Of a stretch of 64,000 nt of DNA, positions 22,072-53,570 are shown in pieces. A program made the position numbers and the translations under genes. How positions within the stretch are numbered: position 1 is the stretch's first letter; every line of letters starts with the position of its first letter. Under the pieces are notes generated by a model, which made no database searches, was not told the DNA's origin, and saw only the letters and a list, made by a program, of their open reading frames with translations. Origin of the DNA: Candidatus Aminicenantales bacterium (lineage in GTDB: Bacteria; Acidobacteriota; Aminicenantia; Aminicenantales; UBA4085); contig JBEKTZ010000016.1 of the NCBI GenBank assembly GCA_049515535.1, positions 1 through 64,000 on the forward strand, read 5' to 3'.

Positions 22072-22136
22072 GTCAAGGGACGAGCCTTTGCGGCGGAACT
22101 TGACCCCCGGGTAAAGCCCGGGGCCCCGGCCGCTGT
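22072..22136. repeat. Palindromic repeat copy A (short form, 63 bp net), fusA 5' UTR
   Basis: GTCAAGGGACGAGCC..CCCCGGGTAAAGCCCGGGGCCCCGGCCGCTGT; 5 mismatches to copy B. Confidence 0.9.
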
Positions 22137-22221
22137 GGCTAACTCATGGGCTTAGAACCGGTTAGGGGATAATCGCGGCGGTGAAATCTAAGCGATCAAG
22201 AGGCCCTATAAACGAGAATCC

Positions 22222-22250
22222 ATTATACGGAAATGATCCCCCGAAATCAA
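22222..22250 (-). promoter_or_regulatory. Sigma70-type promoter of fusA
   Basis: TTGATT-17-TATAAT. Confidence 0.7.
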
Positions 22251-22256
22251 GCGCAG

Positions 22257-22355
22257 ATTGGGGTCGCGTCTACACTTTGCACTTTTAATGGAAAAAATAG
22301 ACGCGACCCCGATTACTTCCAAAGTGAAAGTGCAAAGTGTAGACGCGACCCCAAT
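22257..22355. repeat. 29-bp perfect inverted repeat (REPIN-like) with an internal third partial copy
   Basis: ATTGGGGTCGCGTCTACACTTTGCACTTT at 22257-22285, exact reverse complement at 22327-22355; TAGACGCGACCCC also at 22298-22310. Confidence 0.85.
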
Positions 22356-23584
22356 TATTCCCGGCTGCTTGGATCGGTCGCGGAAAGCCCCGCGACAAGG
22401 CCCGACGCCCAGGCCCAGGCCAGGTTGAAACCGCCGCGCTTGCCCTGGACGTCCAGAATCTCGCCGGCGAAGAATATGCCTTTGCAGAGTCTTGATTCGA
22501 GCGTTCGCGGATCGACTTCGCCGGCGTCCACGCCCCCGCTCGTGAATTCGGCCTCGTTCCAGCCGCGCGTCCCGTGCACGGTGAATCGCTTTTCTTTGAG
22601 GGCGACGGCCAGGGCGTGCGCTTTCTTGCTCTGATCCTGATGTCCCGTGGGGAGGATCTCAGGGATCAACGCCGCGAATTTGTACGGCAGGATTCCGGCG
22701 CCCAGCTCGCCGTCCACCCATCCCGCCTTCATTCGCCTTTCGAATTCAGCGGCCAGGGCTTCTTGGGTCATGAACGGGACAAGGTCCAGGACGATGGCGA
22801 CGTTCCGGTTCTTGTCCCGGTGGAGGGCGATGGAGAGGCTTTCGCTGACGTCGAGGACGACCGTGCCGGACAAGCCGTATTGCGTGAACAGGACGTCTCC
22901 CCCGGCTGTCCCGGCGGGCTTGCCGTCGATCATTGCCGCGGCGCGGGTCATCATTTTCTGGCCTTGGAGAACGTGGCACATTTTGTCATTGACCAGAAGC
23001 GGGACGGCGCTCGGTACTGGCGGGATAATGTGATGGCCGAGCTTTTGGGCCAGTCTGTGGCCGCTGCCGTCGGAGCCCAGCGCTGGGTAAGCCATGCCGC
23101 CGCCGGCCAGGATGACCGAATGGGCTTCGATTTTGCGGGTCGGGCCGGCCTCGATTCTGAATCCGAAGGCGGAAGGTTCGACGGCGGACGTTTCGAAACC
23201 CAGCTCGACGGCGATGCCGAGCCTCCGGATTTCCATCTCGAGAACATGCAACACCGAGGAGGCCTGGTTGGTGACCGGGAAAACGCGGCCCCCTTCGGAA
23301 TAGACTTCGAGCCCCAGGCCGCGAAAGAAATGTTGGATGTCGTCGTTCCCGATCCGGCCGAAAACGGATTCGACGGGGCTCTTGTCCGTGGCCGTATAAT
23401 ATCCCGGGGCGAGGTTTTCGTTCGTCAGGTTGCATCGGCCTCCCCCGGTCACCAGGATCTTTTTTCCGAGGCGCGACATCCTGTCGCAGATCACGGTGCT
23501 TAGGCCCTTCCGTGCGGCGCTGATCGCCGCGGCCAGGCCGGCCGCGCCCCCTCCCACCACGGCGACGTCGAAACAGCGCAGCAT
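22355..23584 (-). CDS. HI0933/BaiN-family flavoprotein
   Basis: VVGGGAAGLAAA, GKKILVTGGGRCNLTN, GRVFP, TSGGV, GEILDVQGKRGGFNL. Confidence 0.92.
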   Translation of the reverse strand: MLRCFDVAVVGGGAAGLAAAISAARKGLSTVICDRMSRLGKKILVTGGGRCNLTNENLAPGYYTATDKSPVESVFGRIGNDDIQHFFRGLGLEVYSEGGRVFPVTNQASSVLHVLEMEIRRLGIAVELGFETSAVEPSAFGFRIEAGPTRKIEAHSVILAGGGMAYPALGSDGSGHRLAQKLGHHIIPPVPSAVPLLVNDKMCHVLQGQKMMTRAAAMIDGKPAGTAGGDVLFTQYGLSGTVVLDVSESLSIALHRDKNRNVAIVLDLVPFMTQEALAAEFERRMKAGWVDGELGAGILPYKFAALIPEILPTGHQDQSKKAHALAVALKEKRFTVHGTRGWNEAEFTSGGVDAGEVDPRTLESRLCKGIFFAGEILDVQGKRGGFNLAWAWASGLVAGLSATDPSSRE

Positions 23585-23650
23585 GATTATACAGCTTACC
23601 CGAAGTGAGGGCGTTCGTAAAGCGCCTTGGGGCCGAGGGCGTTCAATCTG

Positions 23651-23679
23651 TTGACTTTTCTGCCGGTTGCCTCTAAACT
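23651..23679 (+). promoter_or_regulatory. Sigma70-type promoter of leuS
   Basis: TTGACT-17-TAAACT. Confidence 0.6.
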
Positions 23680-23747
23680 TTAGCCTGATTCCAGCCTGTC
23701 CGACGGCATCCCCATAGGGTCGCGGAACAACAAGGAACGATCGAGCC

Positions 23748-26221
<2,474 letters not shown>

Positions 26222-26225
<4 letters not shown>

Positions 26226-26746
26226 AACCGTATAAAGTTGGCCTTCTGATTCTGGCCGTCATCTCCCTGGCGGGGTGCGGCTACCGCCTTCGCGGCACGG
26301 GAAACCTGCGGGATGTCCTCCCGGCTTATGTCAAGAAGATCTGCGTCCCGCTTTTCAAGAACGATACGACGCGGTTCGAGCTCGATAAAAAACTCACCGA
26401 GGGCGTCATCGACGAGTTCGTATCCCGGGGAAAGGTCGAGATCACCTCGGATGCCGCATCCGCCGACGCGACGCTGACCGGCGAGATCCTGAGGTTCACG
26501 GCCGTCCCGTCCGGATTCTCGGCCCAGGGATCGGCCGACCATTACACCATTTACGTTGTCGCCAGCGTCGTCTTGACGGACATGAAAAACAAAAAGGTCA
26601 TTTATTCGAATCCCTCGTATGTCTACAACGAGGATTACGAGGTTCCCCAGGGAAAAGACTTCGAATCCGTCGAAACCGAAGCGCTCAAGAAGATCGCCGT
26701 AAAATTCGCCCGGAACCTCGTCCTCACCATCCTCGAGGGATTCTAG
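26222..26746 (+). CDS. lptE: LptE-family lipoprotein
   Basis: Lipobox LAGCGYRL; leuS-lptE-holA synteny. Confidence 0.85.
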
Positions 26747-26748
26747 GA

Positions 26749-27804
26749 ATGCGGAGCGCTCTGTTCAACCGGGAGATCCGGGAAGAGAACCTCGCGGCCG
26801 GATATTTCTTCCACGGCGAGGAGTTCTTTCAGGCGCATCAATTCATCCGCGACCTCCAGCGCGAGCTGGCTTCTCCGGACGACCAGGGCGTTGGCCTGGA
26901 GCGGTTCAGCTTATCCACGACGCCCTGGCGGGACATCCTGGACGTGGCCCGGACCATGCCTTTTTTCTTCTCTCCATGGCGGCTGCTCATCGTCGAGATC
27001 GAGGACGACGACGAAGGGGATCTGACCGCGCCCGAGATGAAGATCCTCAAGGAATATTTTGCCGCGCCCACGCCGAAAACGATCCTGATCGTCCTCTTCG
27101 CCGGCAAGATCCGGAAGACCAAGCCTCTCTTAAAGTTTTTTTCGTCGCTTCCGCCGACGGCCGTCGTCGTCAAGGAGCTCAAGGCCCTCAAGGACGGAGC
27201 GTTGTTCGCCTGGGTGGAGGCGAAAGTAACGGCGCTCGGAAAACGGGCAAGCTCGGAGACCATCGACCACCTGATCGAAGTGACGAGCAGCGACTTGTAT
27301 CGCCTCGACAACGAACTGGAGAAACTGGCGACATATGCCGGGGACAAGAAGCTCATCGAAGAGGCGGATGTCAATCGACTCTCGGCCGGGCTCAAGGATT
27401 TTGATCATTGGGAACTCACGAATTGCCTGGAGAAAGCCGATTTTGAGAAGAGCCTGACCGTTTTAAACAGTTTATTCGCGGAAAATTACGCCCCGCCGTA
27501 TATCCTGGGCATCCTCGCGAGCTTCCTCCGCGACATCCTGCTGGCGAAGACATGGCTGAGAGAAAAAAAGGACCGGCGGGAGATCTTCCGGGAGCTCAGG
27601 CCCCAGATTTCCGAAACATATGTCAGCCTTTATCGGGCGAAGTTCAAGGACCTCTTCGATCTGGTGGAACGGCTTTCCCTGAAAGAGATCAATTTTCTTA
27701 TCGCCCGGCTCGAGCAGGTCGATCTCAAGATCAAGACGACGGACGCGTCGGCCCAGGCGCTTTTCGAGGCGTTTATCTCTGAGTATTGCCGGCTTCGAAA
27801 ATAG
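26749..27804 (+). CDS. holA: DNA polymerase III delta subunit
   Basis: YFFHGEE, TMPFFF, LDNELEKLATY, DLKIKT; synteny. Confidence 0.88.
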   Translation: MRSALFNREIREENLAAGYFFHGEEFFQAHQFIRDLQRELASPDDQGVGLERFSLSTTPWRDILDVARTMPFFFSPWRLLIVEIEDDDEGDLTAPEMKILKEYFAAPTPKTILIVLFAGKIRKTKPLLKFFSSLPPTAVVVKELKALKDGALFAWVEAKVTALGKRASSETIDHLIEVTSSDLYRLDNELEKLATYAGDKKLIEEADVNRLSAGLKDFDHWELTNCLEKADFEKSLTVLNSLFAENYAPPYILGILASFLRDILLAKTWLREKKDRREIFRELRPQISETYVSLYRAKFKDLFDLVERLSLKEINFLIARLEQVDLKIKTTDASAQALFEAFISEYCRLRK

Positions 27805-27810
27805 GCGGGA

Positions 27811-28089
27811 TCAGTTCGCCGGAGCGGACTTGACCGATTCCACCTGCCGGCTGAGCCGCGATTTGTACCGCGACCCCTTGTTCTTGTGGATCGTTCCCTT
27901 TTTGACGCTGATATCTATGGTCGAATAGACTTGAGGAAGAATCTTCTTGGCGGTTTCCTTATCCTTGGACTGGATAAGCTCTTTGATCTTCTTGACATGA
28001 GAACGGAGGGCGGACTTGTTCTTCTTGTTGACGGCCTGCCTCCGGACGCTCCGGCGCTGTTGCTTGATCGCGGAATGATGATGAGCCAT
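27811..28089 (-). CDS. rpsT: 30S ribosomal protein S20
   Basis: SAIKQQRRS..N..KGTIHKNKGSRYKSRL; TTGACT-17-TATTAT promoter at 28116-28144. Confidence 0.95.
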   Translation of the reverse strand: MAHHHSAIKQQRRSVRRQAVNKKNKSALRSHVKKIKELIQSKDKETAKKILPQVYSTIDISVKKGTIHKNKGSRYKSRLSRQVESVKSAPAN

Positions 28090-28179
28090 ATTCAAATCTC
28101 CTCTAAAACCGAGATATAATAGAACATAAGGTCCCCAAAGTCAACAAGCGGGCGGAGGGAAGGAGACGAAAGGTCCGTC

Positions 28180-28665
28180 ATGATCATCGTGTTGCAGCGT
28201 GTGAAAAAAGCCCGGGTCGAGGTGGACGGCCGAATCGCCGGAGAAATCGGGAAAGGCATCTGCCTGCTCGTAGGCATCGAGAAAGGCGATACGCCCCGGG
28301 ACGTGGAATCATTGGCCGGGAAAGCGGTGGAACTTCGGATTTTTCCCGACGCCGAAGGGAAAATGAATCTATCGTCGGCCGATGTGGGGGCCGAGGTGCT
28401 TGCCGTCTCTCAATTCACCCTGGCCGCTTCCGTGAAGAAAGGCCGCCGGCCCAGCTTCGACAACGCCGAGAGCCCTGCTCGAGCGGCGGAGCTTTTCGAT
28501 CATTTCGTCGATCTTGTCCGCACGGCCGGTTTCAAGGTCGAGACCGGCGTCTTTCAGGCGGTCATGGACGTCCATATCCTCAACGACGGCCCCGTGACCT
28601 TCATCCTCGATTCGAAGTCCCGGAAAGTTGAATTCCGGGAGGGTTCAACCCCCGTTTCTAGATGA
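28180..28665 (+). CDS. dtd: D-aminoacyl-tRNA deacylase
   Basis: VLQRV, LRIF, VSQFTL, GRRPSF, NDGPVT. Confidence 0.96.
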   Translation: MIIVLQRVKKARVEVDGRIAGEIGKGICLLVGIEKGDTPRDVESLAGKAVELRIFPDAEGKMNLSSADVGAEVLAVSQFTLAASVKKGRRPSFDNAESPARAAELFDHFVDLVRTAGFKVETGVFQAVMDVHILNDGPVTFILDSKSRKVEFREGSTPVSR

Positions 28666-29257
28666 ATTTCAAATCGCAGATTTTTTCGAGCGCTTCGACC
28701 GCGGCCGTCCGGACATAAGGATTCGAGTCCTTCGAGAGGCGGACGAGAAGGGTTCGCGCCTCCTTCCCCCCGATTTCGCCGAGGGCCTGGGCCGCGTTAC
28801 GTTTGACCTCGACATTCGGGTCGTCGATGACGCCCTGGATATGCCTGACGGCTTCGGCGTTTTTCTTGAGGCTGAGGATCTTGAGGATAGCGCTTTTCAC
28901 GTACCAGGGCGGATGGGCCAGTCTCTCATAGATCTTGAAAATGGGACAATCGTCCCGGCGGGCGAGCTCCTGGACCGCTATGTCCCGGATTTCCTCGCTC
29001 GAGTCCGCCAGCAGTTCCATGAAAACGGCGCAGACCCATGGATGCGAAAGCCGGGCGATACCGTGCAACAGCTTGATCTTCTTGTCCCTGTTCTGGAGAA
29101 TGTCGATCCTGCGGAGGATGGCCTTGGTGATGGTTTCGGCGTCGGCCTCTTTGGCCTCCGCGGCTTTCATCTGTTCGAGGATATCCAGACCCGTCTCCTC
29201 GAATATCTCGGAATTGCCGTTGCGCGAGCGCCTGAGAAACTTGACCACTCTCGTCAT
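28658..29257 (-). CDS. HEAT-repeat protein
   Basis: [46 protein letters not shown] overlap with the ribBA stop. Confidence 0.85.
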
Positions 29258-30534
29258 ACCATTTCGAGGATATGGCCCATTTTTTCCTTTTTGGTCTTCA
29301 TGTATTGAAGATTGATCGTGTTCGGCGGGATCTCGATCGGGACGCGTTCGACGATTTCGAGGCCATAGCCGGTCAGCCCGAAGAATTTCCGCGGGTTGTT
29401 GGTCAACAGCCGGATTTTCTTGACCCCCAGCGAGACAAGGACCTGGGCGCCGATGCCGTAATCCCGCTGATCGGGCTTGAACCCCAGCAGCGTGTTGGCC
29501 TCGACCGTGTCCGCGCCCAGGTCCTGCATGGCGTAGGCTTTGATCTTGTTGGTCAGCCCGATGCCCCGCCCCTCGTGGTTGAGGATGTAGAGGATGACGC
29601 CTTTTCCGTCTTTTTCGATCTTTTCCATTGCCTGGTGGAGCTGGTCGCCGCAGTCGCAGCGGCAGGAGCCGAACGTGTCGCCGGTCATGCACTGGGAATG
29701 GGCCCGCACAAGCGTGGGTTCCTCGGCCCGGATCTCGCCCTTGACCAAGGCCAGATGGTTTTCGTGATGGATGATGTCTTCGAACACCGCGATCTTGAAA
29801 TCGCCGTATCGCGTCGGGAGTTCCGCTTCCTCGATCTTGACGACGAGGCATTCGTTTTTCATCCGGTAGTTGATCAGGTCGGCGATCGTCAGGATCGGGA
29901 TGCCGTGCTCCTCGCTGATCCGTTCGAGCTCGGGCATCCGGGCCATGGTCCCGTCCTCGTTCATGATCTCGCAGATCACGCCGGCCGGCGCCAGGCCGGC
30001 GAGCCGGGCCAGGTCCACGGCGGCTTCGGTTTGGCCGGCGCGAGCGAGGACGCCGCCCTCCTTGGCTTGAAGCGGGAAAATATGTCCGGGTCGGGCGAGG
30101 TCGGAAGGCTTCGTCTTCGGATCGACGGCCAGCCGCACGGTCCGCGCCCGGTCGTACGCGGAAATGCCCGTCGTGATTCCTTCGATCGCGTCGATGGAGA
30201 CGGTGAAGGCGGTCTGGAACCTGGCGGTGTTGTCCTGGACCATCAGCGGCAGATGGAGCTCCTCGAGCCTCGTTCTCGTCAAGGGCAGGCAGATGAGCCC
30301 TCGTCCGTGCTTGGACATAAAGTTGATGGCGTCGGGGGTGACTTTCTCAGCCGCGACCATCAGGTCGCCTTCGTTTTCACGGTCCTCGTCGTCGACGATG
30401 ATGATCAATTGTCCCCGACGGACGGCCCCGATCGCTTCTTCCACAGCGGCCGGGGCCCCGGGCTTTGCCCGGGGGTCCGCTTCCGCCGCGAAGGCTCGTC
30501 CCTTGACCGTGGCCGTCGCGCTTTTATTTTTCAT
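29254..30534 (-). CDS. ribBA: DHBP synthase / GTP cyclohydrolase II, with a 21-aa repeat-derived insert
   Basis: [50 protein letters not shown]. Confidence 0.97.
30443..30507. repeat. Palindromic repeat copy B (63 bp net), in frame in ribBA
   Basis: Encodes (V)[21 protein letters not shown]; 4 mismatches to copy C. Confidence 0.92.
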
Positions 30535-30553
30535 TCCGATCGATCCTCTAATC

Positions 30554-31144
30554 CTATTTTTTTGTTTGAGTTATCCAATTATACACATATTTGCCGATCA
30601 TGTCACACTCGACGTTGACCCGGTCTCCCGTCTTCAGGTCGCGGAGGTTGGAGTTTTCGAGGGTGATGGGGATGATCTCGACGTCGAAGGAGGACGGGGC
30701 CAGGGCCGCCACGGTCAGGCTGACCCCGTTCACGGCGACCGAACCCTTGGGGATGAAATAGGACCTGAATTCGCGGGGCAGGGACAAGCTCAGCCTTTTT
30801 CCCGGCTTTCGCGGGATCGCCCGGAGCAGGCGGGACGTGAAATCCACGTGGCCCATGACGAGATGCCCGCTGAGCGGCGAGGCCAAGGTCAAAGGGAGCT
30901 CCAGGTTCAACCGGAGCCCCGGTCGGAGCGTGCCGAGGCTCGAGCGTTCGATCGTTTCTTTGGAGAGGTTGAAAAAAAGAAGGCGGGCGTCCTTGCGGAT
31001 GACGCTCAGGCAGACGCCGTCGACCGCAACGCTCTCTCCGACCGCAAGGCGAGCCGTCACGTCCGGCGCTTCGACCGCCAGCTCTTTTTTGCCTTGGCGA
31101 TAGCCCCTGAAAAAGCCCGAATGCGTGATGATTCCCGTGAACAT
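30554..31144 (-). CDS. ribE: Riboflavin synthase
   Basis: [41 protein letters not shown]. Confidence 0.96.
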
Positions 31145-33446: not shown

Positions 33447-35141
33447 ATGGATGGATGTATCTGGAAAATAGCGCCCGACAGCGAAGCGGCCGAACGGCTG
33501 GCCTCCGCGTTGGGCATTCCCCTGCCCATTTCCCGGATCCTCGTCAACCGGAAGATCAGGGAGCCGGAAGACGCGCATCGTTTTCTCTATGGCTCGCCCG
33601 ACCAGCTCCATGACCCTTATCTCATGCCGGGCATGAAAGCGGCCGTGGACCGTATTTTCCGGGCGATCGAAAGCGGCGAAAAGATCCTCATATTCGGCGA
33701 TTACGACGTGGACGGCGTGTTGTCCGTGGTGATGTTGCATAAGGCCCTTCAGTCGCTGGGGGCTGAGGTCGATTATTTCATCCCGGAGCGGCTCAAGGAA
33801 GGATACGGCATCAAGGACGAGCATATCGCGGTCGTTCTGGAACGCGGAGCGCGTCTGGTCATCAGCGTGGATTGCGGCGTCAAAGCCGTGGGGTTCGTCC
33901 GCTTGGCCAAGGAACAAGGCATCGATGTGATCATCACCGACCACCATCTTCCCGGAGATGAACTCCCGGAAGCCCTGGCCATTCTCGACCCCACGCTGGA
34001 AGCTTCGACCTATCCCGACCGGGGCCTGGCCGGCGTAGGCGTGGCTTTTAAGCTGATCCAGGCGCTGCTCGACCGCCAGGGCAAATCATCACGGCTCCGC
34101 CATTACATGAAGCTTGTCGCCATTGGAACGATCGCGGACGTGGCCAAGCTCACGGGCGAAAACAGGATCTTCGTCAAACAGGGGCTCAAGGAGCTCGAGA
34201 ACGTTTCCAATATCGGCCTGAAAAGCCTGATCGAGGTCGCCGGGCTGAAAGGCAAGAAGATTTCGGAGGGCGATATCGGGTTCCGCATCGGGCCGCGCAT
34301 CAACGCCGCCGGACGGATGGAGCACGCCGACCTGGCGGTCAAGCTGTTCTTCTCCGAATCCTCGGAGGATGCGCTTCCCCTTGCCCTCCTCCTGGACCGC
34401 AAGAATACCGACCGGCAGGCGACCGAGGAGAAGATTTACAAGCAGGCCTGCGAGCGCATCGAGAGCCGATCCCTGGACAAGAAACACAAGATCCTCATCC
34501 TGGGCTGCGATGAGTGGCACAAGGGCATCATCGGGATCGTGGCCTCGAAGCTTAAAAGCACTTACTGCCGTCCCGTCATCCTCTTCGTGTACGACGATGA
34601 AACGGCCTCCGGTTCGGGCCGAAGCATTCCGGAGTTCTCCCTGATCCAGTGCCTCGATGAGTGCCGGGAACATTTCCTGAGCTATGGAGGTCATGAATTG
34701 GCGGTCGGATGCACCCTCCGGACTGCTGATTTGCCGGCCTTCAAAAACGCGGCCAATGCCGTGGCCGCCTCCCGGATCAACGACGAAGATATCCGGAGAA
34801 AGATCGAAATCGATACGAGGCTTGATTTCGCCGAACTCGACGCGGCCTTCTTTACGCATCTCGGACTCCTCTCTCCGTTCGGCATGGGCAACCCCCGGCC
34901 CGTTTTCATGTCGGAGGACGTCGAGGTCGCCGGTCCGCCGAAGAGCTTGAAAAATGGCAAGCATGCGAAATTCCTGCTCCGCCAGAACGGCCGGCTGTTC
35001 GAGGCGGTCGGCTGGGGCAAAGGGGAATGGACGGAAGGCGTGCGCCAGGGCGACCGCGTCGCCGTGGCCTACGGCCTCCAATTTTCCTCTTATCTCGGCG
35101 AAGAGAAGCTGACGCTGGTCCTGGAAGGATTGAGGAAATGA
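33447..35141 (+). CDS. recJ: ssDNA exonuclease RecJ
   Basis: GDYDVDG, GYG, ITDHH, GTIADV, GPRINAAGR, GSGRS, PFGMGNP. Confidence 0.96.
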   Translation: MDGCIWKIAPDSEAAERLASALGIPLPISRILVNRKIREPEDAHRFLYGSPDQLHDPYLMPGMKAAVDRIFRAIESGEKILIFGDYDVDGVLSVVMLHKALQSLGAEVDYFIPERLKEGYGIKDEHIAVVLERGARLVISVDCGVKAVGFVRLAKEQGIDVIITDHHLPGDELPEALAILDPTLEASTYPDRGLAGVGVAFKLIQALLDRQGKSSRLRHYMKLVAIGTIADVAKLTGENRIFVKQGLKELENVSNIGLKSLIEVAGLKGKKISEGDIGFRIGPRINAAGRMEHADLAVKLFFSESSEDALPLALLLDRKNTDRQATEEKIYKQACERIESRSLDKKHKILILGCDEWHKGIIGIVASKLKSTYCRPVILFVYDDETASGSGRSIPEFSLIQCLDECREHFLSYGGHELAVGCTLRTADLPAFKNAANAVAASRINDEDIRRKIEIDTRLDFAELDAAFFTHLGLLSPFGMGNPRPVFMSEDVEVAGPPKSLKNGKHAKFLLRQNGRLFEAVGWGKGEWTEGVRQGDRVAVAYGLQFSSYLGEEKLTLVLEGLRK

Positions 35142-37171
35142 GCCTGAGGAAACGGCGGGGCGATTATAAGCTGAAAGCGGCCCGCTTGATCCGCCCCGTG
35201 CTCGTGATCCTCCTCGCGACGATCGTCCTTGTCATCCTGGGTTATCTCGTCCGCCAGATCCTTCAGTCGCGGCGCGCCGAACCCCCCCTAAAAAAAATCG
35301 GTCAAAAAAAAGTCGAACAGAGGGATCAGGTCCGGGTTTTCCAGTATCATAAAGATAAGGGATTGATCGAGGCCAAGGGCGATCGGAATTATCCCCAGGA
35401 CGAAAACACCATGCGCCTCGAAGGGCACGTCGAGGTTCTCGACCGCGGGCGGCAGGGCGGCCGCGAGATCAAGATGACAGGGGACCTCCTCGCGTATGAC
35501 AAGGAAATGGCCCATTTCTTTTTCAAGGGAAACGTCCGGGTTCAATTCAAGAATGTGACGATAGAAGGCCCGGAGTTCGAGTATAACCGGGCGGAAGACT
35601 TCATGAAGACATCGAGCGGCGTGAAAATCGCCTCTCCGACATTCAGCGGCTCTTCGAAAAAAGCCCTGTTTTTCGTGAAGGACGAGGGGCTGATCCTCGA
35701 AGAGGACCTCCAATTGACCGTCCGGCTGCGGCTCCCGACGGCGGACGGGGCCCCGGGCTTTGCCCGGAGGTCCACTTCCGCCGCGAAGGCTCGTCCCTTG
35801 ACTTCGGAGCCGTTCGTCCTGACCGGAAATAAGCTGACGTACGCTTTCCGGGATCGGCGGGGCAAGATGGAGGGGAATCTCGACATCGTCCACGGCCAGA
35901 GCCACGGCACGGCCGACAACGTCTATTTCGAGTTGTTCGATAAAACAGAGGAATTGAGGATCCTGAGGATTTCCGGCGGGGTCAAGCTCAACCTCGAGGA
36001 GCCCCGAAGGGCCGCCAAAAAGCCGCGCGCCGAAAAGACCCCCCCGCCGTCCCAGGTTCAGGAGCCGTCGATCAACCGGGAATTCCGTCTGGACTTGAGC
36101 GTGAGGCAGGCGATCGAGGCCGATGATATCAAACTGCAGGCTTATCTGAACAAGCCTCTCTTGCGCCTCATAGAATGCCGTGGGCACAGTTCCATTAAAT
36201 TTGACTTCGACTCGGGAGAAGCGACGCGGATCCAGGGCGATGACCTCGATCTGAATTTCAACACGGACGGAAGCTTCCGGGCCCTGAGCGTGGTCCGGGA
36301 GGCCCGCATCTCCGCCCTGGACAAGGACGGGAAGATTGTTCGCCTGATCGAAGGGACGGCCATGGCTTTGGACGTGGAAAACCGCATCCTGCGTGTCGGG
36401 GGAGAAGAAAGCCGGAGGGCGAGGATTTTTTCCTCCCAGAGCGACGTGTCCGGCGACGAGATTTCGATCCTGATCAGGCTGGACGACTTCGAAGCCAAAG
36501 GAAACGTCCAGATGAACTTCCGGCCGTCGCCGACGGAGGCTGAAGACCGGGGCTTTTTTTCCAGGGAAAAGCCCATCTTCGCGACCGCCCAGGGTCTGAG
36601 ATATTCTAGCCAGTCCAAGCGTTTCTTATTATGGGAGCGAGTGAGGACCTGGCAGGACAAGAGAATGCTCTCGGCCCAGGAGATCATCGTCGCTGAGGAC
36701 GCGGGCGACATCACCTGCCAGGGTGGCGTCCAATCCGTCTTTCCTCATACGCCCAAGGGCAAAGATAAGGAACAGCGCGTGGAGATCTCGGCCGGTAAAA
36801 TGCGCTTCGACCACGAGTCCAGCCAGGTGATCTACGAGGACAATTGTATTATGAAATCGGGAGCCGCCGTCCTGCAATGCGGGCTGATCACGGTCAATCC
36901 GGGGATCGGAGGCGGCGAAGTCCGCTCGATGCGCGCCGTCAAGGGGGGCGCCAAGGCCGTCACGATCGTGATGATCGAGAAAGAAGGGACCGGGGAGATC
37001 GCGGAATACGATGTCGAGAAGGATACGATCACGCTCACCGGCCGGCCCGAGCTGAAAGAGAAGGACAAAGGGACCGTTAAGGGGGATAAATTGACTTTCT
37101 ACCTGACCGATGGTAAAATCCTCGTCGAGACGAGGGATCAAGAACGGCCGGTGTCAGTCATCAAATCGTGA
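35138..37171 (+). CDS. Large LptC/LptA (OstA-like) multi-jellyroll protein, with a 21-aa repeat-derived insert
   Basis: N-terminal TM anchor, beta-rich body, LptA-like C-terminus (ITLTGRPEL..TVKGDKLTFY); directly upstream of lptB. Confidence 0.8.
   Translation: MSLRKRRGDYKLKAARLIRPVLVILLATIVLVILGYLVRQILQSRRAEPPLKKIGQKKVEQRDQVRVFQYHKDKGLIEAKGDRNYPQDENTMRLEGHVEVLDRGRQGGREIKMTGDLLAYDKEMAHFFFKGNVRVQFKNVTIEGPEFEYNRAEDFMKTSSGVKIASPTFSGSSKKALFFVKDEGLILEEDLQLTVRLRLPTADGAPGFARRSTSAAKARPLTSEPFVLTGNKLTYAFRDRRGKMEGNLDIVHGQSHGTADNVYFELFDKTEELRILRISGGVKLNLEEPRRAAKKPRAEKTPPPSQVQEPSINREFRLDLSVRQAIEADDIKLQAYLNKPLLRLIECRGHSSIKFDFDSGEATRIQGDDLDLNFNTDGSFRALSVVREARISALDKDGKIVRLIEGTAMALDVENRILRVGGEESRRARIFSSQSDVSGDEISILIRLDDFEAKGNVQMNFRPSPTEAEDRGFFSREKPIFATAQGLRYSSQSKRFLLWERVRTWQDKRMLSAQEIIVAEDAGDITCQGGVQSVFPHTPKGKDKEQRVEISAGKMRFDHESSQVIYEDNCIMKSGAAVLQCGLITVNPGIGGGEVRSMRAVKGGAKAVTIVMIEKEGTGEIAEYDVEKDTITLTGRPELKEKDKGTVKGDKLTFYLTDGKILVETRDQERPVSVIKS
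35738..35802. repeat. Palindromic repeat copy C (63 bp net), in frame in the lptC/A-like gene
   Basis: Encodes (T)[21 protein letters not shown]; opposite orientation relative to its host gene compared with copy B. Confidence 0.92.
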
Positions 37172-44709: not shown

Positions 44710-44764
44710 GCCGCGGAAGGAACGCTTCGAGCCGAAGGCCCTAAGGCCGGACTTCGCCGTCCGG

Positions 44765-46480: not shown

Positions 46481-46492
46481 CGTCCGGACCGG

Positions 46493-47047
46493 TTATTTTT
46501 CGATGACCAAAAATTGGCCGCGACGGTTTCTCTGCCAAGCGGCCTCGTCGTGGCCCATGTCCACGGGCTGGCTCTTGCCGTAGGAGATCGTCTTCATCCG
46601 CTCGGCCGGAATGCCGAGGGAAAGAAGATAGTCATAAGCGCTCTTGGCCCGTTTTTCGCCCAGGGCCAAGTTATAGTCTTCCGTGCCGCGCTCGTCGCAA
46701 TGGCCTTCGATGAGGAACTTGGCCGTCTTGAACTTCTTCAGCCATGCGGCGTTGCGTTCGAGAACGGGTTTCGCGTCTTCGCGGATGAAGAACTTGTCGT
46801 AATCGAAATAGATCGTCAAGAGGGGTTTGTCCCGGTTGATCTGCTCGAGCGATTTGGCCATGAAAAGATCCTCTTCGCCGAGTTCGGGCTTTTTCACGAC
46901 GGGCGGGGGAACGACTTTCTCGACCTTGGGCTGCTCGTTCACCTGCGGCGGCGGGGGCGGCGCGACCTGTTTCGGTTTCTGCTTGCAGGATACGGCGAAT
47001 GCGAAAGCCAAAACGCAGACGAGGGAAAAGATTAATAATTTTTTCAT
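46493..47047 (-). CDS. pal: Peptidoglycan-associated lipoprotein
   Basis: Lipobox AVSC, IYFDYD, IEGHCDERGT..YNLALGEKRA, NRR. Confidence 0.96.
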   Translation of the reverse strand: MKKLLIFSLVCVLAFAFAVSCKQKPKQVAPPPPPQVNEQPKVEKVVPPPVVKKPELGEEDLFMAKSLEQINRDKPLLTIYFDYDKFFIREDAKPVLERNAAWLKKFKTAKFLIEGHCDERGTEDYNLALGEKRAKSAYDYLLSLGIPAERMKTISYGKSQPVDMGHDEAAWQRNRRGQFLVIEK

Positions 47048-47155
47048 GAAACCTCCTCCTTAATAGGGATGTCCATATGAATATTGAACATAACCCTAAC
47101 CGCCAGATATATACAATGAAAAGAGGAGCGTGTCAATTGAATATTCTCCGTTTTC

Positions 47156-47323
47156 TTGGGGAAATTCAGGTCAATTCGGCGGATCCCGTCTTCGATCAGC
47201 CCAGCCGGTTTGCCCTCCTTCTGACCAGGGTTTCCCAGGCGTCGGCCGCCTGGACATTCTGCGAGGGTGTTCTCCGCTCTTAATAATAGACGGGGATTCC
47301 TATCCTGAATCTCATTTCGCCAA
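47156..47323. ncRNA. Candidate long irregular hairpin RNA, unidentified
   Basis: Nested complementary pairs ATTCAGG/CCTGAAT, CCCGTCT/AGACGGG, CCCTC/GAGGG, CCAGGCG/CGCCTGG. Confidence 0.35.
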
Positions 47324-47407
47324 TGATCAGGGGTTGGAAGGGAGAGGAGGAAACTCGGGGATCGCCGGCTTCTTCCTCATCGCCCGCGATGGATTCATGG
47401 ATTCCGG

Positions 47408-47511
47408 GTCAAGGGACGAGCCTTCGGCTCGCCACTCGCCCGTGGCTTATAGCCTCGGGCGAGTACCGCGGAAGTGGACCCCCGGGCAAAGCCCGGGGCC
47501 CCGTCCGCTGT
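47408..47511. repeat. Palindromic repeat copy D (long form, 102 bp net), 12 nt after the tolB stop
   Basis: Short-form sequence plus a 39-bp internal hairpin module. Confidence 0.9.
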
Positions 47512-47523
47512 CAAGGTTTCGTC

Positions 47524-48861
47524 TCAGATTCCGTTGGACCAATCGGGCCAGGTGTTCTGGCCCTTGAACGTGAGCTGGCGGACGTTGGCGCCGTCGTAAT
47601 CGACCGTAAAGATCTGGAGCCCGCCCTTCATGTTCGACTTGAAGACGATGTGGCGGCCGTCGGGCGACCAGGCCGGCGATTCGTTCATGGCGTTGCTTCC
47701 GGTCAGCTCGGTCAGCTTCGAGATCTGTTGTGTATGGAGGTCCAGGAGATAAAGGTCGAAGATATTTTCGACGCGCGCGACAAAGACGATCCGGTCGCCG
47801 ACGGGCGACCAGGCCGGCGAATCGCAGTGGGTCGAGCCGCCGAAGCTCGCCCGCTGGACATTCGAGCCCTCGGCGTCCATAGTGTAGATTTGCGGAGTCC
47901 CGCCCCTGTCGGAGACGAAGACGATTTGCCGTCCGGTCGGCGACCAGGACGGCGCCGTATCCGTTCCCTGATTGAAGGTCAATCGCTTGATGCGGAAACT
48001 GCCGCGTTTCAAGCTGTCTTCGTCGATGTCGGCGATATAGATTTCCATGTTTCCGTCTTGATCTCTCGTCGAGCTGAAGGCCAGCTTTTTGCCGTCGGGC
48101 GACCAGGCCGGAGCGGAACTGATCCCCTTCGTCGAGACCGCGATTCGCCGTCCTTCGTAGACCTGCAGAATGTACAGCCCGGCCGTAAGGCTCTGGTAAG
48201 ACGTGTAGGCGATCATTTTGCCGTCCGGCGAAAAGGCCGGACTGATGTCGTCCACTTTATTGAACGTCAGGCGCGTCTGGTTGGCACCGTCGTAATCCAT
48301 CATGTAGATTTCATGGTTGCCGTCGCGGTCTGAGACGAAGGCGATCTTCGTCTCGAAGACCGGTTTTTCGCCGTAGGCCTTCATGATCTCGTCCGCCATG
48401 CGGTGGGCCAGATACCGAAGGTCGGTCTTTTTGGCCTGGTAGCGCTTGGGCACGATGATCTGCCGCTTCGACTTGACGTCATAGAGGTTCCGCTCGAAAG
48501 CGATGTCCCCGCCCGCGATCTCGGCGACTTCGCCGGTGAAAAGGAGGTTGGCCTGGATGGATTCCCAGTCCTTGAACTGGATGTTTTTCGGGTCGAGCGG
48601 GCGGATGTAGTCGTAATAGCTCTTGGGCAGGAGCTGAAAGATGCGGCTGTATTTCAGATCGTCGGCGAGGACCTGAAAGATCTCGTCGGCCGCGGGCTGC
48701 GCCTCGGGCGTCGCGACGGTGAATTTGGGGAGGGCGAAACTGATCGCCGGAATCCCGTCTTTTATGATCAGGTGGAATTCCTGTTGGGAATGAAGAATCC
48801 GGCCGAAGGCCAGCAAGGCGAGAAAGATCAACGCGGAGGAGACGATTTTTGTCGTTTTCAT
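47524..48861 (-). CDS. tolB: TolB
   Basis: TolB N-domain and PD40 repeats (PAWSPDG). Confidence 0.92.
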
Positions 48862-49664
48862 TTGGAATGCTCGAAACGGAGATAAATGCCCAGATATTCC
48901 TCATCGTAACCGGGGGGGTGAGGAGGGAATTTCGCGGATTGCATGACCGCCCGCACGGCCGATTGGTCGAGCGTCTTCAAGCCGCTCGATTCTTTGATTT
49001 CGACCTTCGAGATGGACCCGTCTTTGAAGATGCGGAAATAGACGTCCACATGAAAGGTTCCGCCGGCGCCGGGATCGACGAGCGACTGGAACCAGTTCGA
49101 TTGGATCTTGGACTGAATCTCCACGATATAGTAATTATAAGGAAAATTCGAAAGGCCGAGGTCGCTGGGAAACCCGCCGCCTTCGCCCTCTCCCGTTCCG
49201 CCCAGGCCGATGGTCAAGCCCGCCCCGCCGCCACCAGCCGCTTCCCGGCCCTGGCCGGAAGCGGCCTCTTTGGCCGGCGCCGTCTTGGCCGAGGGATCGG
49301 GTTTGGTGATCACGGCTTTTTTACCGGGATTTTTAGCGGGCTCCTTTTTCGGTTTGTCCACGGGATAGCGCAGCTGGGATTGCGGCTCGTCCGGCTGGAG
49401 TTTCTGGAGGGTCGTCAGGTCCCGGAGCGTTTCTTTTTTGACCTCGGTCGCGCCCAACTCCGTTTGCCGAGCGGCCTTGATCCCGCTGCCTCCGCCGGAT
49501 AGGCCGAAATTACTCATCGAGATGTAATGAATCATGTCTTGCCGGGCCGGTTTCGGAAGGCTGGGATTGAGGATGATCGTAAGGACGAGGATGGAATGGG
49601 CCGCCGCGGAAATGACCATTGCCCGCTTGAAGGCCCGGCTGTTCGATCCCGTATGCGCGGTCAT
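48858..49664 (-). CDS. TolA/TonB-family protein
   Basis: TM helix with SxxxH, low-complexity linker, TonB C-domain ([12 protein letters not shown]). Confidence 0.85.
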
Positions 49665-50104
49665 CGGTCCTTGTTTTTGACTTCGATCGGCTCGGTTATC
49701 AAGGCGACGACTTCGACGCCGACTTTCTTGGCGATGTCCATGATTTCGATGACGTAGCCGTAGGGGAGCAACGTATCGGCTTGGAGATAAATGATCTTTT
49801 TCGGCTTGCCGTAAAAATATTGCTCCAGCCTGTTTTTCAGGAGGCTGATGTTGATCACGGAATTCTCGAAATAGATGTATTTGTTCACGTCGACCGTCAG
49901 CCGCAGCCCTTGTTCGGCCGGCGCGGTGTCGGTTTCGGCTTTCGGCAGGTTGACGCCGATGCCGGACTGCATCATCGGCGTCGTGACCATGAAGATCACG
50001 AGCAGCACGAGCATGACGTCCACGAACGGGGTGATGTTGATCTCGGAGAGGGACGTGCCCAGCTCTCTCTTCGAGCGGATGGAGGGCAATTTAGGGAGTA
50101 CCAT
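49661..50104 (-). CDS. tolR: TolR/ExbD
   Basis: SEINITPFVDVMLVLLVIFMVT. Confidence 0.9.
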   Translation of the reverse strand: MVLPKLPSIRSKRELGTSLSEINITPFVDVMLVLLVIFMVTTPMMQSGIGVNLPKAETDTAPAEQGLRLTVDVNKYIYFENSVINISLLKNRLEQYFYGKPKKIIYLQADTLLPYGYVIEIMDIAKKVGVEVVALITEPIEVKNKDR

Positions 50105-50756
50105 AGAGCCGCTCCGCGATGCTCAGAAGCTCGAGCGAAAAATCCTCCATGTCGGTGATGAAGTCCTTGATCCGGTGGATGAAGGTGTTGTAAGCGATGA
50201 CCGCCGGGATGGCGGCGAACAGGCCCACGGCCGTAGCCACCAGGGCCTCGGCGATGCCGGGGGCGACCGACAGCAGGCTGGCCGACCGCGTCACGTTGAT
50301 ATTGAGGAACGAATCCATGATGCCCCAGACCGTCCCCAGAAGGCCGATGAACGGCGAGACGCTGCCGGTCGTGGCCAGAAACGACATAAGTCTTTCCATC
50401 TTGGCGACTTCGGCGTTGGAGGCCTTCGTCAGGGCCCGGCTCAGGTTGTCAAGGCTCGCCCCGCTGGGCCCGCCCTGCGGGCTGGCTTTGGCCAGATAGG
50501 CCATTTCCTTGAATCCCGCCTGGAAAATGGAGGCCTGCGGGCTGGCTTGGAATGACTTGGCGGCCTCGCCCACCTCGGTCAGATTCCGGCTTTTTTTGAA
50601 GACGGCCAGGAATTTTTGCGACTGGGCGGCCGCCTTTCTCAGGGAGTTTCTTTTGAAAATGATGATCGTCCAGGAAAAAAGCGAAAAAAACAGAAGGATG
50701 AGAAGAATGACCTGGACGACCGGGCTCGCATCGGTGATCAGTTTAAAAATGTTCAT
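50091..50756 (-). CDS. tolQ: TolQ/ExbB
   Basis: SPFIGLLGTVWGIM, VAPGIAEALVATAVGLFAAIPAV. Confidence 0.92.
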   Translation of the reverse strand: MNIFKLITDASPVVQVILLILLFFSLFSWTIIIFKRNSLRKAAAQSQKFLAVFKKSRNLTEVGEAAKSFQASPQASIFQAGFKEMAYLAKASPQGGPSGASLDNLSRALTKASNAEVAKMERLMSFLATTGSVSPFIGLLGTVWGIMDSFLNINVTRSASLLSVAPGIAEALVATAVGLFAAIPAVIAYNTFIHRIKDFITDMEDFSLELLSIAERLYGTP

Positions 50757-50799
50757 TGTTTTCGGTATTAAGGTAGCATGGCGGACGCGCCAAAGTCAA

Positions 50800-51045
50800 T
50801 TTGAGCCGGCAGCGCTCAGGAAACGCTGCTCGTCACTACGCGGATTTTCCCCAGCGCGGAAAATCCGCTCGGCCTCGCTCTCGAGCTCTCGGAAAAACTG
50901 CGTTTTTCCGAACCATGCCCGCTCTCGCGCTCGGACGGGTTCCGAGCAGCATATCCTTCGCTTCGGTGACATAAGAAATAATGCTAGGAGAAAAGGATAT
51001 TCCTCCAAGAGTGCCCGACGTCACCCGTTCTCCCCAAAACAGCCG
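50800..51045. repeat. Structured multi-hairpin intergenic element, locus 3
   Basis: Hairpins GCGGATTTTCC..GGAAAATCCGC and TCGGAAAAA..TTTTTCCGA; motifs shared with loci 1 and 2. Confidence 0.6.
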
Positions 51046-51052
51046 GGAATCG

Positions 51053-53398
51053 TCATTCGAGGAGGCGGGACAGGATTTCGACCGCGACTTCCTTGGCCCG
51101 CTCGCCGCTCTCCTTCGTCGGCCCGACGCAGGAGGGACAGCCGTCCTGGCAGGGGCAGGCGGTGATCGTTTTGAGGCAGTAATCGAGCAGCTTTTTTTCG
51201 AGGTCGAACAGGGACGGGCTCAGGCCGATGCCGCCCGGGTAGTTGTCATAGATGAAGATGTTCGGCTCGAAATCGATGTCGGCGTAAACCGGACCCTGGA
51301 TCGGCTGGATCTTGGCCAGGAGGTCTCTGGGCGGGATGGATTCGCCCGTGGAATTGTCGCCGATCGAGACGCCGATGTCGTGGATATCGCACATGAGGAA
51401 GAGCGGGGCGACGTTATGCATGATGTACGACAGCCCGTAGAGGCCGTTGATCTTTTGCTCCGGCGTGAACGACAGGGACTGCAGGAGCGACGAGGGCACG
51501 GTCACCCAGGAGGCGGTCGTGTGCATCTCGTTCTGCGGCAGGCTCAAGTCGCCGGCGCCGACGTTCTCGTTCGTATGGAACTTGATCTTCTTGAAGCCCA
51601 CGACCTGCGTCGCGACATGGACTTCGCCGTGCGAGGCGTTGCACCCGTCGACCTTCCGCGTATCGAAGATGTCGAGGATCTTGATCTTCGTGTAATCGAT
51701 GGCGTCGGTGTAATAATCGGCGTCCGTCTTCTTGACGTAGGCTTTGCGCTCGGCGTAATCCAACTTCTCGACGAAATACTGTTCTCCTTCGCAGATGTAG
51801 ATGGCCTTCTCGTGGAGCGTCGTCAGGGCCGCCGTGAAGTCCACCTCGGCGATGATCCGGGCTTTGTCGGTCGTATCCACGACGACGAAATTATCCGAGC
51901 TGATGCTGCGCAGGCTCACGGCGTCGGCCGGATAGGCGTCCGACGTCCAGTACCACTTCTCCTTCGAGTGATGAACGAGCTTCTCCTCCTCCAGGAATTT
52001 CAGGATCTCGCCGATGTCCGCGCGGCCGAAAGTCTCGCCGTCCTGAAACGGCAGCTCGAACGCCGCGCATTCGATGTGGTTGATGAGGATGGAGAGGTTG
52101 TCCGGGTTGATCAGGGCCTTCTCCGGGTTCTTGGAGAAGAAGTAATCCGGGTGGTTGACGATGAACTGGTCGAGCGGAGCGCTCGAGGCGACGAGAACCG
52201 CGGCCGATGTGCCCGTCTTCCGGCCGGCGCGGCCGGTCCTCTGCCAGGTGCTGGCGATCGTTCCCGGATAGCCGGCCAGAACGGCGACGTCGAGCGTCCC
52301 GATATCGATCCCGAGCTCAAGCGCGTTCGTCGAGACGACGCCCAGAATCTTGCCTTCGCGCAGGCCCTTCTCGATTTCCCGGCGCTTGAGCGGGAGATAG
52401 CCGCCGCGATATCCCCGGATGAGGCCCTCGTCCTTGACCGTCTTTTCGATGTCCTCCTTGAGGTAGGTCACAAGGACTTCGGTGATCAGGCGGCTCTGGG
52501 CGAAGACGATGGTCTGGAGATGGTTTTTGAGAAAAAGCGCGGCGATCCGGCGCGACTCGTTGACGTAGGAGCGGCGGATGCCCAGAAATTTATTCACCAC
52601 GGGCGGCGTGTAAAAAACGATGTACTTGTCGCCGCGCGGGGCGCCGTTGTCGTCGACAAGCGTCACGGGCTCCTCGATCATCTTCTCGGCCATCTCGAGC
52701 GGATTGGCGATGGTCGCCGTGCAGAGGATGAATTGCGGCGAAGCGCCGTAAAACCGGGCGACGCGCTTGAGACGGCGCAGGACATTGGCCAGATGGCTGC
52801 CGAAGATGCCCCGGTAGTTGTGCAGCTCGTCGATGACGATATATTTGAGGTTCTCAAAAAGCTTGATCCACTTGGTGTGGTGCGGAAGGATGCCGGCGTG
52901 GAGCATGTCCGGGTTGGTCAGGACGATGTGGCCGCGGGCGCGGATGGCTTTGCGCGCGTCCTGCGGCGTGTCGCCGTCGTACGTGAAAATCCGGATTTCC
53001 TCGGGCAGTTGCTTGATCGTTTCGTCGAGCTCGGCGCGCTGGTCGTTGGCGAGCGCCTTCGTCGGGAAAAGATAAAGCGCCCGGGCCGACGGGTTCTTGA
53101 GCATGGCGTCCAAAACGGGAAGGTTGTAGCAGAGCGTCTTTCCGGACGCCGTGGGCGTGACGACGGCCGCGTTTTTTCCCTGTCGGACCGCTTCCCAGCA
53201 GGTGTGCTGATGCGTGTAGAGCCGCTCGAACCCTTTGTCCTTGAGCGCCTTCACCAGGGCCGGTTGGACTTCTTTCGGATAATCCACGTAGCTGCCCTCC
53301 TGGGCGGGGAGGTGTTTGATCGCCCGGAGGGAATCGCTCTCGACGCTGATTCTTTGGAGCATATCCAGCGCCTTGAGTAGGTTTTCCTGGCGTCCCAT
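51053..53398 (-). CDS. DEAD/DEAH helicase with DUF1998 (MrfA/YprA-like)
   Basis: TPTASGKTL, IDELH, STNALELGID, QRTGRAGR, C-terminal CPCQDGCPSC. Confidence 0.92.
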   Translation of the reverse strand: MGRQENLLKALDMLQRISVESDSLRAIKHLPAQEGSYVDYPKEVQPALVKALKDKGFERLYTHQHTCWEAVRQGKNAAVVTPTASGKTLCYNLPVLDAMLKNPSARALYLFPTKALANDQRAELDETIKQLPEEIRIFTYDGDTPQDARKAIRARGHIVLTNPDMLHAGILPHHTKWIKLFENLKYIVIDELHNYRGIFGSHLANVLRRLKRVARFYGASPQFILCTATIANPLEMAEKMIEEPVTLVDDNGAPRGDKYIVFYTPPVVNKFLGIRRSYVNESRRIAALFLKNHLQTIVFAQSRLITEVLVTYLKEDIEKTVKDEGLIRGYRGGYLPLKRREIEKGLREGKILGVVSTNALELGIDIGTLDVAVLAGYPGTIASTWQRTGRAGRKTGTSAAVLVASSAPLDQFIVNHPDYFFSKNPEKALINPDNLSILINHIECAAFELPFQDGETFGRADIGEILKFLEEEKLVHHSKEKWYWTSDAYPADAVSLRSISSDNFVVVDTTDKARIIAEVDFTAALTTLHEKAIYICEGEQYFVEKLDYAERKAYVKKTDADYYTDAIDYTKIKILDIFDTRKVDGCNASHGEVHVATQVVGFKKIKFHTNENVGAGDLSLPQNEMHTTASWVTVPSSLLQSLSFTPEQKINGLYGLSYIMHNVAPLFLMCDIHDIGVSIGDNSTGESIPPRDLLAKIQPIQGPVYADIDFEPNIFIYDNYPGGIGLSPSLFDLEKKLLDYCLKTITACPCQDGCPSCVGPTKESGERAKEVAVEILSRLLE

Positions 53399-53466
53399 GT
53401 CGTACTAATCCTATCAATAATTTCGGTGACAGACAACTCAACCATGAAATTTTTTAGTGACAGTCA

Positions 53467-53570
53467 ACGGCGGACGGGGCCCCGGGCTTTACCCGGGGGT
53501 CCACTTCCGCCGTACTCGCCCGTGGATATAAGCCACGGGCGAGTGGCGAGCCGAAGGCTCGTCCCTTGAC
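53467..53570. repeat. Palindromic repeat copy E (long form, 102 bp net), between the helicase and uvrA
   Basis: Near-identical to the reverse complement of copy D. Confidence 0.9.

Follow-up and report, generated by a model that had tools for sequence, protein, structure and literature searches.

A family of modular hairpin mini-elements in Aminicenantes genomes, found between genes and in frame inside conserved genes

Introduction

How can a mobile hairpin settle inside conserved genes, and what might move it? The question is raised by a 64,000-nucleotide stretch of DNA from Candidatus Aminicenantales (assembly GCA_049515535.1, contig JBEKTZ010000016.1, positions 1 to 64,000 of the forward strand; hereafter the window). 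An earlier note, made from the letters of the window, described five copies of a palindromic mini-element with net lengths divisible by three and proposed a non-autonomous element able to persist inside conserved genes. The source genome (G000) comprises 3.45 Mb in 32 contigs, the window being its contig C16. Here, we follow the element through this genome and through its relatives (other G numbers).

Two known systems frame the question. In the accessible text of a 2024 review of MITEs (miniature transposable elements with inverted repeats), Rickettsia palindromic elements (RPEs) are short palindromic repeats of about 150 bp that lie between genes and in frame inside unrelated conserved genes, nearly half of 44 being genic, and the same in other prokaryotes is called conceivable only (PMC10969869). 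Palindrome-associated transposable elements (PATEs), as far as the accessible text on them goes, have no inverted terminal repeats, near-terminal palindromes, no target duplication and a 4-6-nt 5' targeting oligonucleotide (PMC3119063); described in haloarchaea, they are presented as ends-only derivatives of IS200/IS605 insertion sequences, and 52-bp versions are thought to be mobile (PMC3119063; also PMC10055086). The element reported here appears to match RPEs in behaviour and PATEs in anatomy.

A modular family of hairpin mini-elements

The five copies belong to a family of non-autonomous, modular hairpin mini-elements of Aminicenantes genomes. A genome-wide BLASTN check, proposed in the earlier note and run with the five window copies, returned 128 loci in the source genome and further copies in relatives. 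An end-anchored census found 109 units with both ends: 52 are 65 bp long, 46 are 104 bp and 6 are 131 bp, and lengths of 64, 103, 105, 106 and 141 bp occur once each. Another 29 left-end matches without that right end include some truncated copies and some chance matches, and a looser right end brought the census to 115 full units. Mean identity to the respective consensus is 95.8% for the short form (n = 52) and 96.0% for the long form (n = 46). With lengths of 65-143 bp, the units are too short to encode a transposase.

The forms are built from a few modules. The 65-bp short form consists of a 5' tail and one long imperfect hairpin, the 104-bp long form has three hairpins, and nested or composite forms reach 131 and 143 bp, so that a new copy adds 63, 102, 129 or 141 bp. 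Each of the six 131-bp units consists of a long copy nested in a short one, at an internal AAGTGGA, and in three of them the rest of the short form follows; the 143-bp form includes an additional 33-nt hairpin module together with a duplicate of the main hairpin within its 3' arm. Five of six frames are open in the short form and four of six in the long form. The DNA fold of a long copy (copy D below) reaches -40.7 kcal/mol (z = -6.9), and none of 200 shuffles was as good.

The window copies and the host gene of one of them are as follows.

Copy A, 22072-22136, plus strand: short form, 65 bp; intergenic.
Copy B, 30443-30507, minus strand: short form, 65 bp; most likely intercistronic.
Copy C, 35738-35802, minus strand: short form, 65 bp; in frame inside a conserved LptC/LptA-like gene, which is read on the copy's reverse strand.
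Host gene of copy C, 35138-37171, plus strand: 677-aa membrane-anchored LptC/LptA-like protein, within a 714-codon open frame.
Copy D, 47408-47511, plus strand: long form, 104 bp, three hairpins; intergenic.
Copy E, 53467-53570, minus strand: long form, 104 bp; intergenic.

All five were found where the earlier note had placed them, with lengths of 65 or 104, and its finer counts proved exact: copies A and B differ at 5 of 65 bases and copies B and C at 4 of 65, every window copy starts and ends with GT, and copy B is free of stops in five of six frames (three of six are open in copy A). When B, C and E are flipped, the five copies align end to end, with GTCAAGGGA at one end and CCGCYGT at the other and with flanks that diverge on both sides. 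Copies A, B, D and E are intergenic, C alone being genic.

Boundaries, empty sites and a one-sided target

In the source genome, nearly all copies start and finish with GT (positions one and two agree in 96-104 of 109 copies, the final two positions in 94-108), and empty sites hold a single GT, as had been predicted from the window. Within the short form, the consensus AAGTGGA is the empty site of the nested long copies, one GT followed by GGA; orthologues of the GluRS gene have 2 nt where the source genome has 65 bp (5 of 5). Mapping of the flanks with blastn-short gave usable nucleotide junctions for GluRS and, in part, for aldehyde:ferredoxin oxidoreductase (AOR), out of four genes. The AOR empty site reconstructs as CGG GTG GAA, which fits GT/GGA (a slash marks a junction).

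The flanks had been described as largely unrelated. This holds upstream, where no signal was detected; after the right end, three bases are conserved (+1 C in 58 or G in 35, +2 G in 94, +3 A in 85; n = 103). The same one-sided motif recurs in 84 independent copies from other metagenome-assembled genomes (MAGs), with S at +1 in 74 of 81, G at +2 in 62 of 81, A at +3 in 45 of 81 and again nothing upstream. The full consensus flank GGA is present only in copy B among the five window copies, where the other strand gives the consensus target TCCAC; the remaining four read GGC, CGG, CAA and TGA. On its opposite strand each copy reads TCSAC/GGCGG, hairpin(s), CCCTTGAC/. Target information is found at five positions, all on one side, and one AC, which is GT on the consensus strand, remains in the empty site. 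The reverse strand of copy D is TTGAC/...TCCCTTGAC/.

One GT in the empty site and GT at both ends of the filled site would be expected if the target motif and the element end both terminated in AC, and also after a true 2-bp duplication. The accessible text on IS200/IS605 elements describes pentamers as target-adjacent and transposon-end motifs (TAM/TEM), with insertion downstream of the target-adjacent motif and no duplication (PMC10055086). When both junctions of an IS200-type element end in AC, the result is GT at both ends and one GT when empty, without duplication. The target seen here, one-sided with S-G-A after the GT, is closer to what an IS200/IS605-type motif would give than to an IS110 core or a duplication of 2 bp.

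The duplication corresponds to a classical MITE, for which a DDE transposase would duplicate a 2-bp GT target. Such an element would share the GT found at both ends of nearly all copies, and the single GT of the empty sites is formally a 2-bp duplication, a point in its favour and against an IS200/IS605-type mode. Yet terminal inverted repeats are missing: when the first bases are compared with the reverse-complemented last bases, 6 of 15 and 7-8 of 20 positions are identical (6/15 and 7/20 in weighing this explanation). Moreover, the target is conserved on one side only, whereas DDE targets are usually symmetric, and the left-end matches without a right end include no longer element with the same ends. 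We therefore consider a DDE-type MITE improbable.

A miniature IS110-type element, placed by a recombinase that is guided by a bridge RNA and leaves a GT core at each junction, would likewise repeat a core dinucleotide, and the source genome has two IS110-family transposase genes, one of them in the window. IS110 elements, however, recognise a longer specific target that extends to either side of the core. The signal here is 5 nt, one-sided and spread over more than 100 different sites, a 63-bp unit is too small for a bridge RNA, and IS110-family genes occur in 6 of 13 genomes with the element and in 9 of 28 without it. The IS110 lead of the earlier note thus ended with no co-occurrence and an unlike target, and we regard this explanation as very improbable indeed. 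The window gene (473-901, minus strand; DEDD_Tnp_IS110, 61 bits, in a 316-codon frame) has a second copy at C1:201969-202397; no link between it and the mini-element was found.

Proposed mechanism and the search for a mobiliser

The anatomy appears to fit a PATE-like, non-autonomous derivative of IS200/IS605. We judge the chances evenly balanced that this modular hairpin family is moved in trans by a Y1 HUH transposase of IS200/IS605 type, with its whole-codon, stop-poor forms surviving in genes. In such a scheme, the enzyme would move, or would once have moved, the element by cutting one strand at two points, just past the flanking target motif and just past the TTGAC that ends the element. 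The cut strand would leave as a single-stranded circle and would be pasted after another TCSAC-like motif without duplication. Genic copies would survive where the common forms add whole codons and few stops, and selection would remove the rest.

Two groups of IS200 elements bear on this scheme. The junctions of group 1, resident in the same lineage, read flank TTGAC, TTTAC or CTAAC/, hairpin, tnpA, hairpin-N3-TTGAC/; the terminal pentamer TTGAC of the mini-element and its junction logic match this group. In a second group, found in relatives, the stem of the right-end hairpin (CCCCGGGC and GCCCGGGG) is the stem of the element's main hairpin. Extended similarity of the ends was seen with neither group.

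Several results weigh against an IS200/IS605-type mobiliser. The Y1 matches of the source genome are one IS200-type tnpA with a TAA stop and one 341-aa RAYT-like gene. The four genomes with the stem-matching IS200 group contain no copies of the element, IS200-type tnpA does not co-occur with the element (3 of 13 positive and 11 of 28 negative genomes), and no cognate enzyme was found in the source genome or the relatives searched. Folding of the short form lies near that of GC-rich shuffles (z = -1.4 and -2.4) and yields only one strong hairpin, while IS200/IS605 ends normally carry a hairpin at each end. Insertion sequences are often missing from MAGs, and in the source genome the family may have ceased to be active.

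One IS200-type element of the source genome lies at about 1400-2030 of locus L001 (C9:106483-109845), inserted in another transposase gene. It has hairpins CCCCGCGGCTTGCCGCGGGG at both ends, TTGAC at both junctions and a tnpA with one in-frame TAA.

The RAYT-like gene invites a different assignment, in which the element would be a REP/REPIN family moved by this single-copy Y1 protein (341 aa, C13:96204-97229). The protein has a Y1_Tnp domain (47 bits), and HUH-like and Y-containing motifs were noted in its sequence. The likeness to REP/REPIN families extends to high copy number, GC-rich and mostly intergenic hairpins, and a related Y1 HUH enzyme class that would act on them. However, REPs carry a conserved GTAG at the hairpin foot, and neither element consensus contains GTAG or CTAC. 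No element copy flanks the gene in the source genome or at nine orthologous loci, where a single 13-nt blast match is due to chance, and in G014, G013, G027 and G007 long GTAG/CTAC hairpins that are unrelated to the element lie to either side of the gene. The distributions differ as well: the closest orthologue (68% identity) is in element-free G004, that of element-rich G008 shares only 35%, and the gene has matches in 34 of 41 genomes, the element in 13 of 41. We accordingly see little prospect for a RAYT-driven REP family, a lead that the earlier note had named, and rejected RAYT as mobiliser. The RAYT-flanking hairpins, 50-70 nt long (L072, L075, L076 and L077), form a separate REPIN-like family, which the copy of the gene in the source genome (L070) lacks.

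TnpB was also rejected as a mobiliser: none of 41 genomes gave a match, and the control genomes did.

In-frame copies in conserved genes

Ten conserved genes of the source genome contain an in-frame copy, verified by orthologue alignment, with inserts of exactly 21 or 34 residues. The proposal that the length of the element lets it persist inside conserved genes is borne out by these ten copies and by relatives without the insert. Copy C adds 21 residues between LRLPT and (S/P)EP in the source genome alone; all eight orthologues in the correct frame lack them, a ninth sequence in the alignment being a wrong-frame open reading frame (ORF) that was not counted. The host gene of copy C was matched in 25 of 25 genomes searched across the order, the source genome included.

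The other genes were compared with G004, G008, G014, G010 and G003. Inserts in GluRS, AOR and an aconitase-family protein are absent from all five relatives in each case, and the GluRS insert is absent from 28 of 28 orthologues from across the order, a set that leaves out four loci with cut or short ORFs (L059, L254, L257 and L264). An iPGM-like enzyme has a 34-residue long-form insert that the five relatives lack. The same five-of-five absence was obtained for BamA, where the insert lies just past the signal peptide, for a phosphodiesterase-family enzyme and for a GT2 glycosyltransferase; the only orthologue found of an S-adenosylmethionine (SAM) methyltransferase is also without the insert (1 of 1).

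The GT9 heptosyltransferase gene has a more complex history. A long-form insert occupies the same linker position in two different genera, in the source genome (L026, C7:147647-148702) and in G008 (L195). G014, of the same genus as G008, has no long-form insert there; its gene holds a short copy some 40 residues upstream that is translated in a third frame (L196). Neither copy is present in G004, G010 and G003. Either a hot spot was hit twice, or an old insertion was precisely lost in G014. At nine of the ten genic sites, none of the relatives compared has the insert, which makes the insertions younger than the genera.

The ten genes represent a lower bound. When frames open for 30 codons or more on each side of a copy were listed, 65 of 103 distinct copies yielded 103 such frames; the Pfam scan covered 68 frames, from 40 of these loci. 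Six more copies look genic by family motifs or a signal peptide on both sides, in candidate hosts encoding a PIN protein, an M28 peptidase, a CBM9 protein, another secreted protein, a histidine kinase and a membrane protein. No orthologue of the M28 peptidase gene was found in the five relatives.

The verified copies are read in frame fwd-0 in four genes, rev-0 in five and rev-2 in one; the degenerate target position S is a third codon position in fwd-0 and rev-0. The encoded stretch is rich in Gly, Ala, Pro, Ser and Arg. An AlphaFold model of the GluRS of the source genome (mean pLDDT 90.1, pTM 0.85) has one long weak stretch, residues 236-255 within the insert (234-255), without secondary structure and between two helices. 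The predicted structure is compatible with a tolerated loop; it counts for little in favour of this, because the insert has no alignment support and a low pLDDT is expected in any case, which leaves disorder unproven.

A further copy lies at residues 54-88 of the frame at L045:190-1200 (minus strand; C7:149408-150418). The AhpC/TSA-family domain of this frame spreads 124 profile positions over 180 residues (132-311), with about 56 extra residues, away from the mini-element copy.

Length and reading frame

The net length (length minus 2) is a multiple of three in 103 of the 115 full units of the source genome, the other 12 differing. A frame-neutral length clearly allows residence in genes. Whether the lengths are tuned for it is a separate matter. 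They could equally well be a coincidence of a few founder forms together with selection on single insertions, and to us either outcome would come as no surprise. The lengths 63, 102, 129 and 141 represent only about three independent increments (63, +39 and +78), which chance would align about once in 27 cases, and most copies are intergenic, where frame is irrelevant. Pointing the other way, the high fraction in the source genome is joined by the ten verified genic copies, all of which add exactly 63 or 102 bp, and by forms unusually poor in stop codons.

Copies elsewhere weaken the case for tuning. In other MAGs the net length is a multiple of three in only 54 of 84 copies, and a 103-bp subfamily (net 101), with a loop one base shorter, has multiplied there, at least seven copies sharing the change; a frame-neutral length is therefore not obligatory for amplification. 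The description of the element as non-autonomous and mobile was supported by all checks run and is refined by the one-sided target, the mostly intergenic location and this net-101 subfamily. The broader idea that a lineage derived from IS200/IS605 evolved whole-codon, stop-poor modules which colonise essential genes of free-living bacteria (GluRS, BamA and the LptC/A-like gene) and seed surface loops is one we put forward tentatively, and it is rather doubtful.

Genomic context and distribution

Genes were called with a codon model trained on Pfam-verified ORFs (coding fraction 0.82); the context classes are approximate, because the caller misses the LptC/A-like gene. Within these classes, 33 of 103 copies fall inside called ORFs, many of them only in an N-terminal extension or at most 20 nt from the stop. 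The others are intergenic, between co-directional (44), divergent (13) or convergent (12) genes, with one at a contig edge. Genic copies are therefore strongly under-represented relative to random insertion, as expected under selection.

The element was found in 12 of 40 relatives, scattered across several genera and three families. An exact-match scan with one genome per species gave at least 115 loci; among those listed, nearly all are in MAGs labelled Candidatus Aminicenantes or Acidobacteria and a few are under other labels. Identity to the window copies reaches 97-100% for copies from other genera, and conserved proteins are 60-82% identical.

Relation to known elements

Like RPEs, the element occupies intergenic sites and also, in frame, unrelated conserved genes, whose proteins gain a peptide and are not destroyed. 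It differs from the RPEs, as described in the accessible part of the review, in adding 63 or 102 bp rather than about 150 bp and in its lower genic share, with 10 of 103 copies verified in genes and perhaps 16 in all, where nearly half of 44 RPEs are genic (PMC10969869). It also has a defined one-sided target motif, and its hosts are GC-rich uncultured Aminicenantes from peat, groundwater and sediment metagenomes, in contrast to AT-rich obligate intracellular Rickettsia. The two were set apart by base composition, length and host rather than by sequence comparison. The Aminicenantes host is presumably free-living. To our knowledge, no mobilising enzyme has been identified for RPEs.

The likeness to PATEs, on the accessible account of them, lies in the lack of a transposase and of terminal inverted repeats, the near-terminal palindromes, the short one-sided target and the modular or nested forms. 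Unlike for PATEs, no parent insertion sequence with the same ends was found for the element, whose short form has a single main hairpin; in-frame residence in genes is not mentioned for PATEs in that account (PMC3119063). From REP/REPIN families it is distinguished by the absence of GTAG and by not flanking the RAYT-like gene, whose hairpins in relatives differ. No published description of the Aminicenantes element was found in the literature searched, ISfinder and subscription journals being outside its scope.

In-frame palindromic elements in conserved genes, chiefly known from Rickettsia, are thus now also present in an unrelated uncultured phylum, and their hosts include central genes such as those for GluRS, BamA and an LPS-transport protein. 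The clean boundaries, one-sided target and nested empty sites make the mechanism testable. The copies also have practical consequences: by extending ORFs at the N terminus and by adding lineage-specific inserts of 21 or 34 residues, they inflate or distort the gene calls of Aminicenantes MAGs, and they break short-read assemblies, the Logan contigs ending inside every window copy examined.

Orientation relative to GC skew

Orientation was compared with GC skew, an expectation taken from the accessible part of PMC5027513. In the source genome, the strand reading TCSAC/...TTGAC/ is the locally G-rich strand in 79 of 103 copies (Fisher p = 4.5e-8 at +-20 kb; p < 1e-4 from +-5 to +-40 kb). The leading strand is usually G-rich, as assumed when skew is read as replication direction. 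Neighbouring copies switch orientation 30 times against 43.5 in shuffles (p = 0.002), and 15 of 16 contigs with an orientation majority follow the skew rule. The rule is independent of the strand of the neighbouring gene (35 of 48 and 23 of 29), and copies show no preferred orientation with respect to that gene (36 same, 41 opposite).

The bias was not reproduced in relatives, where only 51 of 104 copies keep the rule (14 of 23 in G027 and G018 together, 14 of 22 in G024, 12 of 31 in G014 and 11 of 28 in G008), which weighs against a general orientation rule. The windows from relatives are at most 20 kb, many on short contigs; the same pipeline gave 94 of 123 in the source genome. Because replication in relatives failed, the orientation bias is suggestive only. 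On contig C5, the skew changes from -0.022 to +0.038 between about 65 kb and 171 kb and the copy orientation flips along with it; the change could be a replication origin, a terminus or an inversion.

Neighbourhood of the window copies

Neighbouring genes were assigned with Pfam. Copy A lies between the stop of an HI0933-like flavoprotein gene (22355-23821, minus strand) and the start of an EF-G-family gene (19955-22045, minus strand). Copy B lies between the stop of the riboflavin synthase gene (30554-31144, minus strand) and the RibBA domains. The longest ORF there (29254-30534, with ATG at 30534) crosses copy B; its DHBP_synthase domain covers residues 32-223 only, and copy B is most likely intercistronic because the domain begins only at residue 32. 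Copy D is placed between the tolB stop (47524-48861, minus strand) and the start of a pal/OmpA-family gene (46493-47047, minus strand), and copy E between the divergent starts of a DEAD/MrfA-type helicase gene (51053-53398, minus strand) and a UvrA-like gene (53619-56126, plus strand).

The host protein of copy C has a weak LptC match at residues 64-163 and an LptD_N/LptA match at 549-659. It appears to be a fused or extended bridge protein of lipopolysaccharide (LPS) transport, with a weak LptC-like region and an LptA/LptD_N domain.

Rfam at gathering thresholds gave no matches in the window. In Logan contigs of four runs, which stop inside the repeats, no row had 63 or 102 nt left out. A strain about 0.5% diverged, from the independent run X2, enters copy C from both sides, so that copy C is common to both. 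In the same run, a minority contig (depth 20 versus about 135) has 33 other letters in place of 225 nt (47298-47523), copy D included, and may derive from a related strain whose tolB-pal spacer is without the element.

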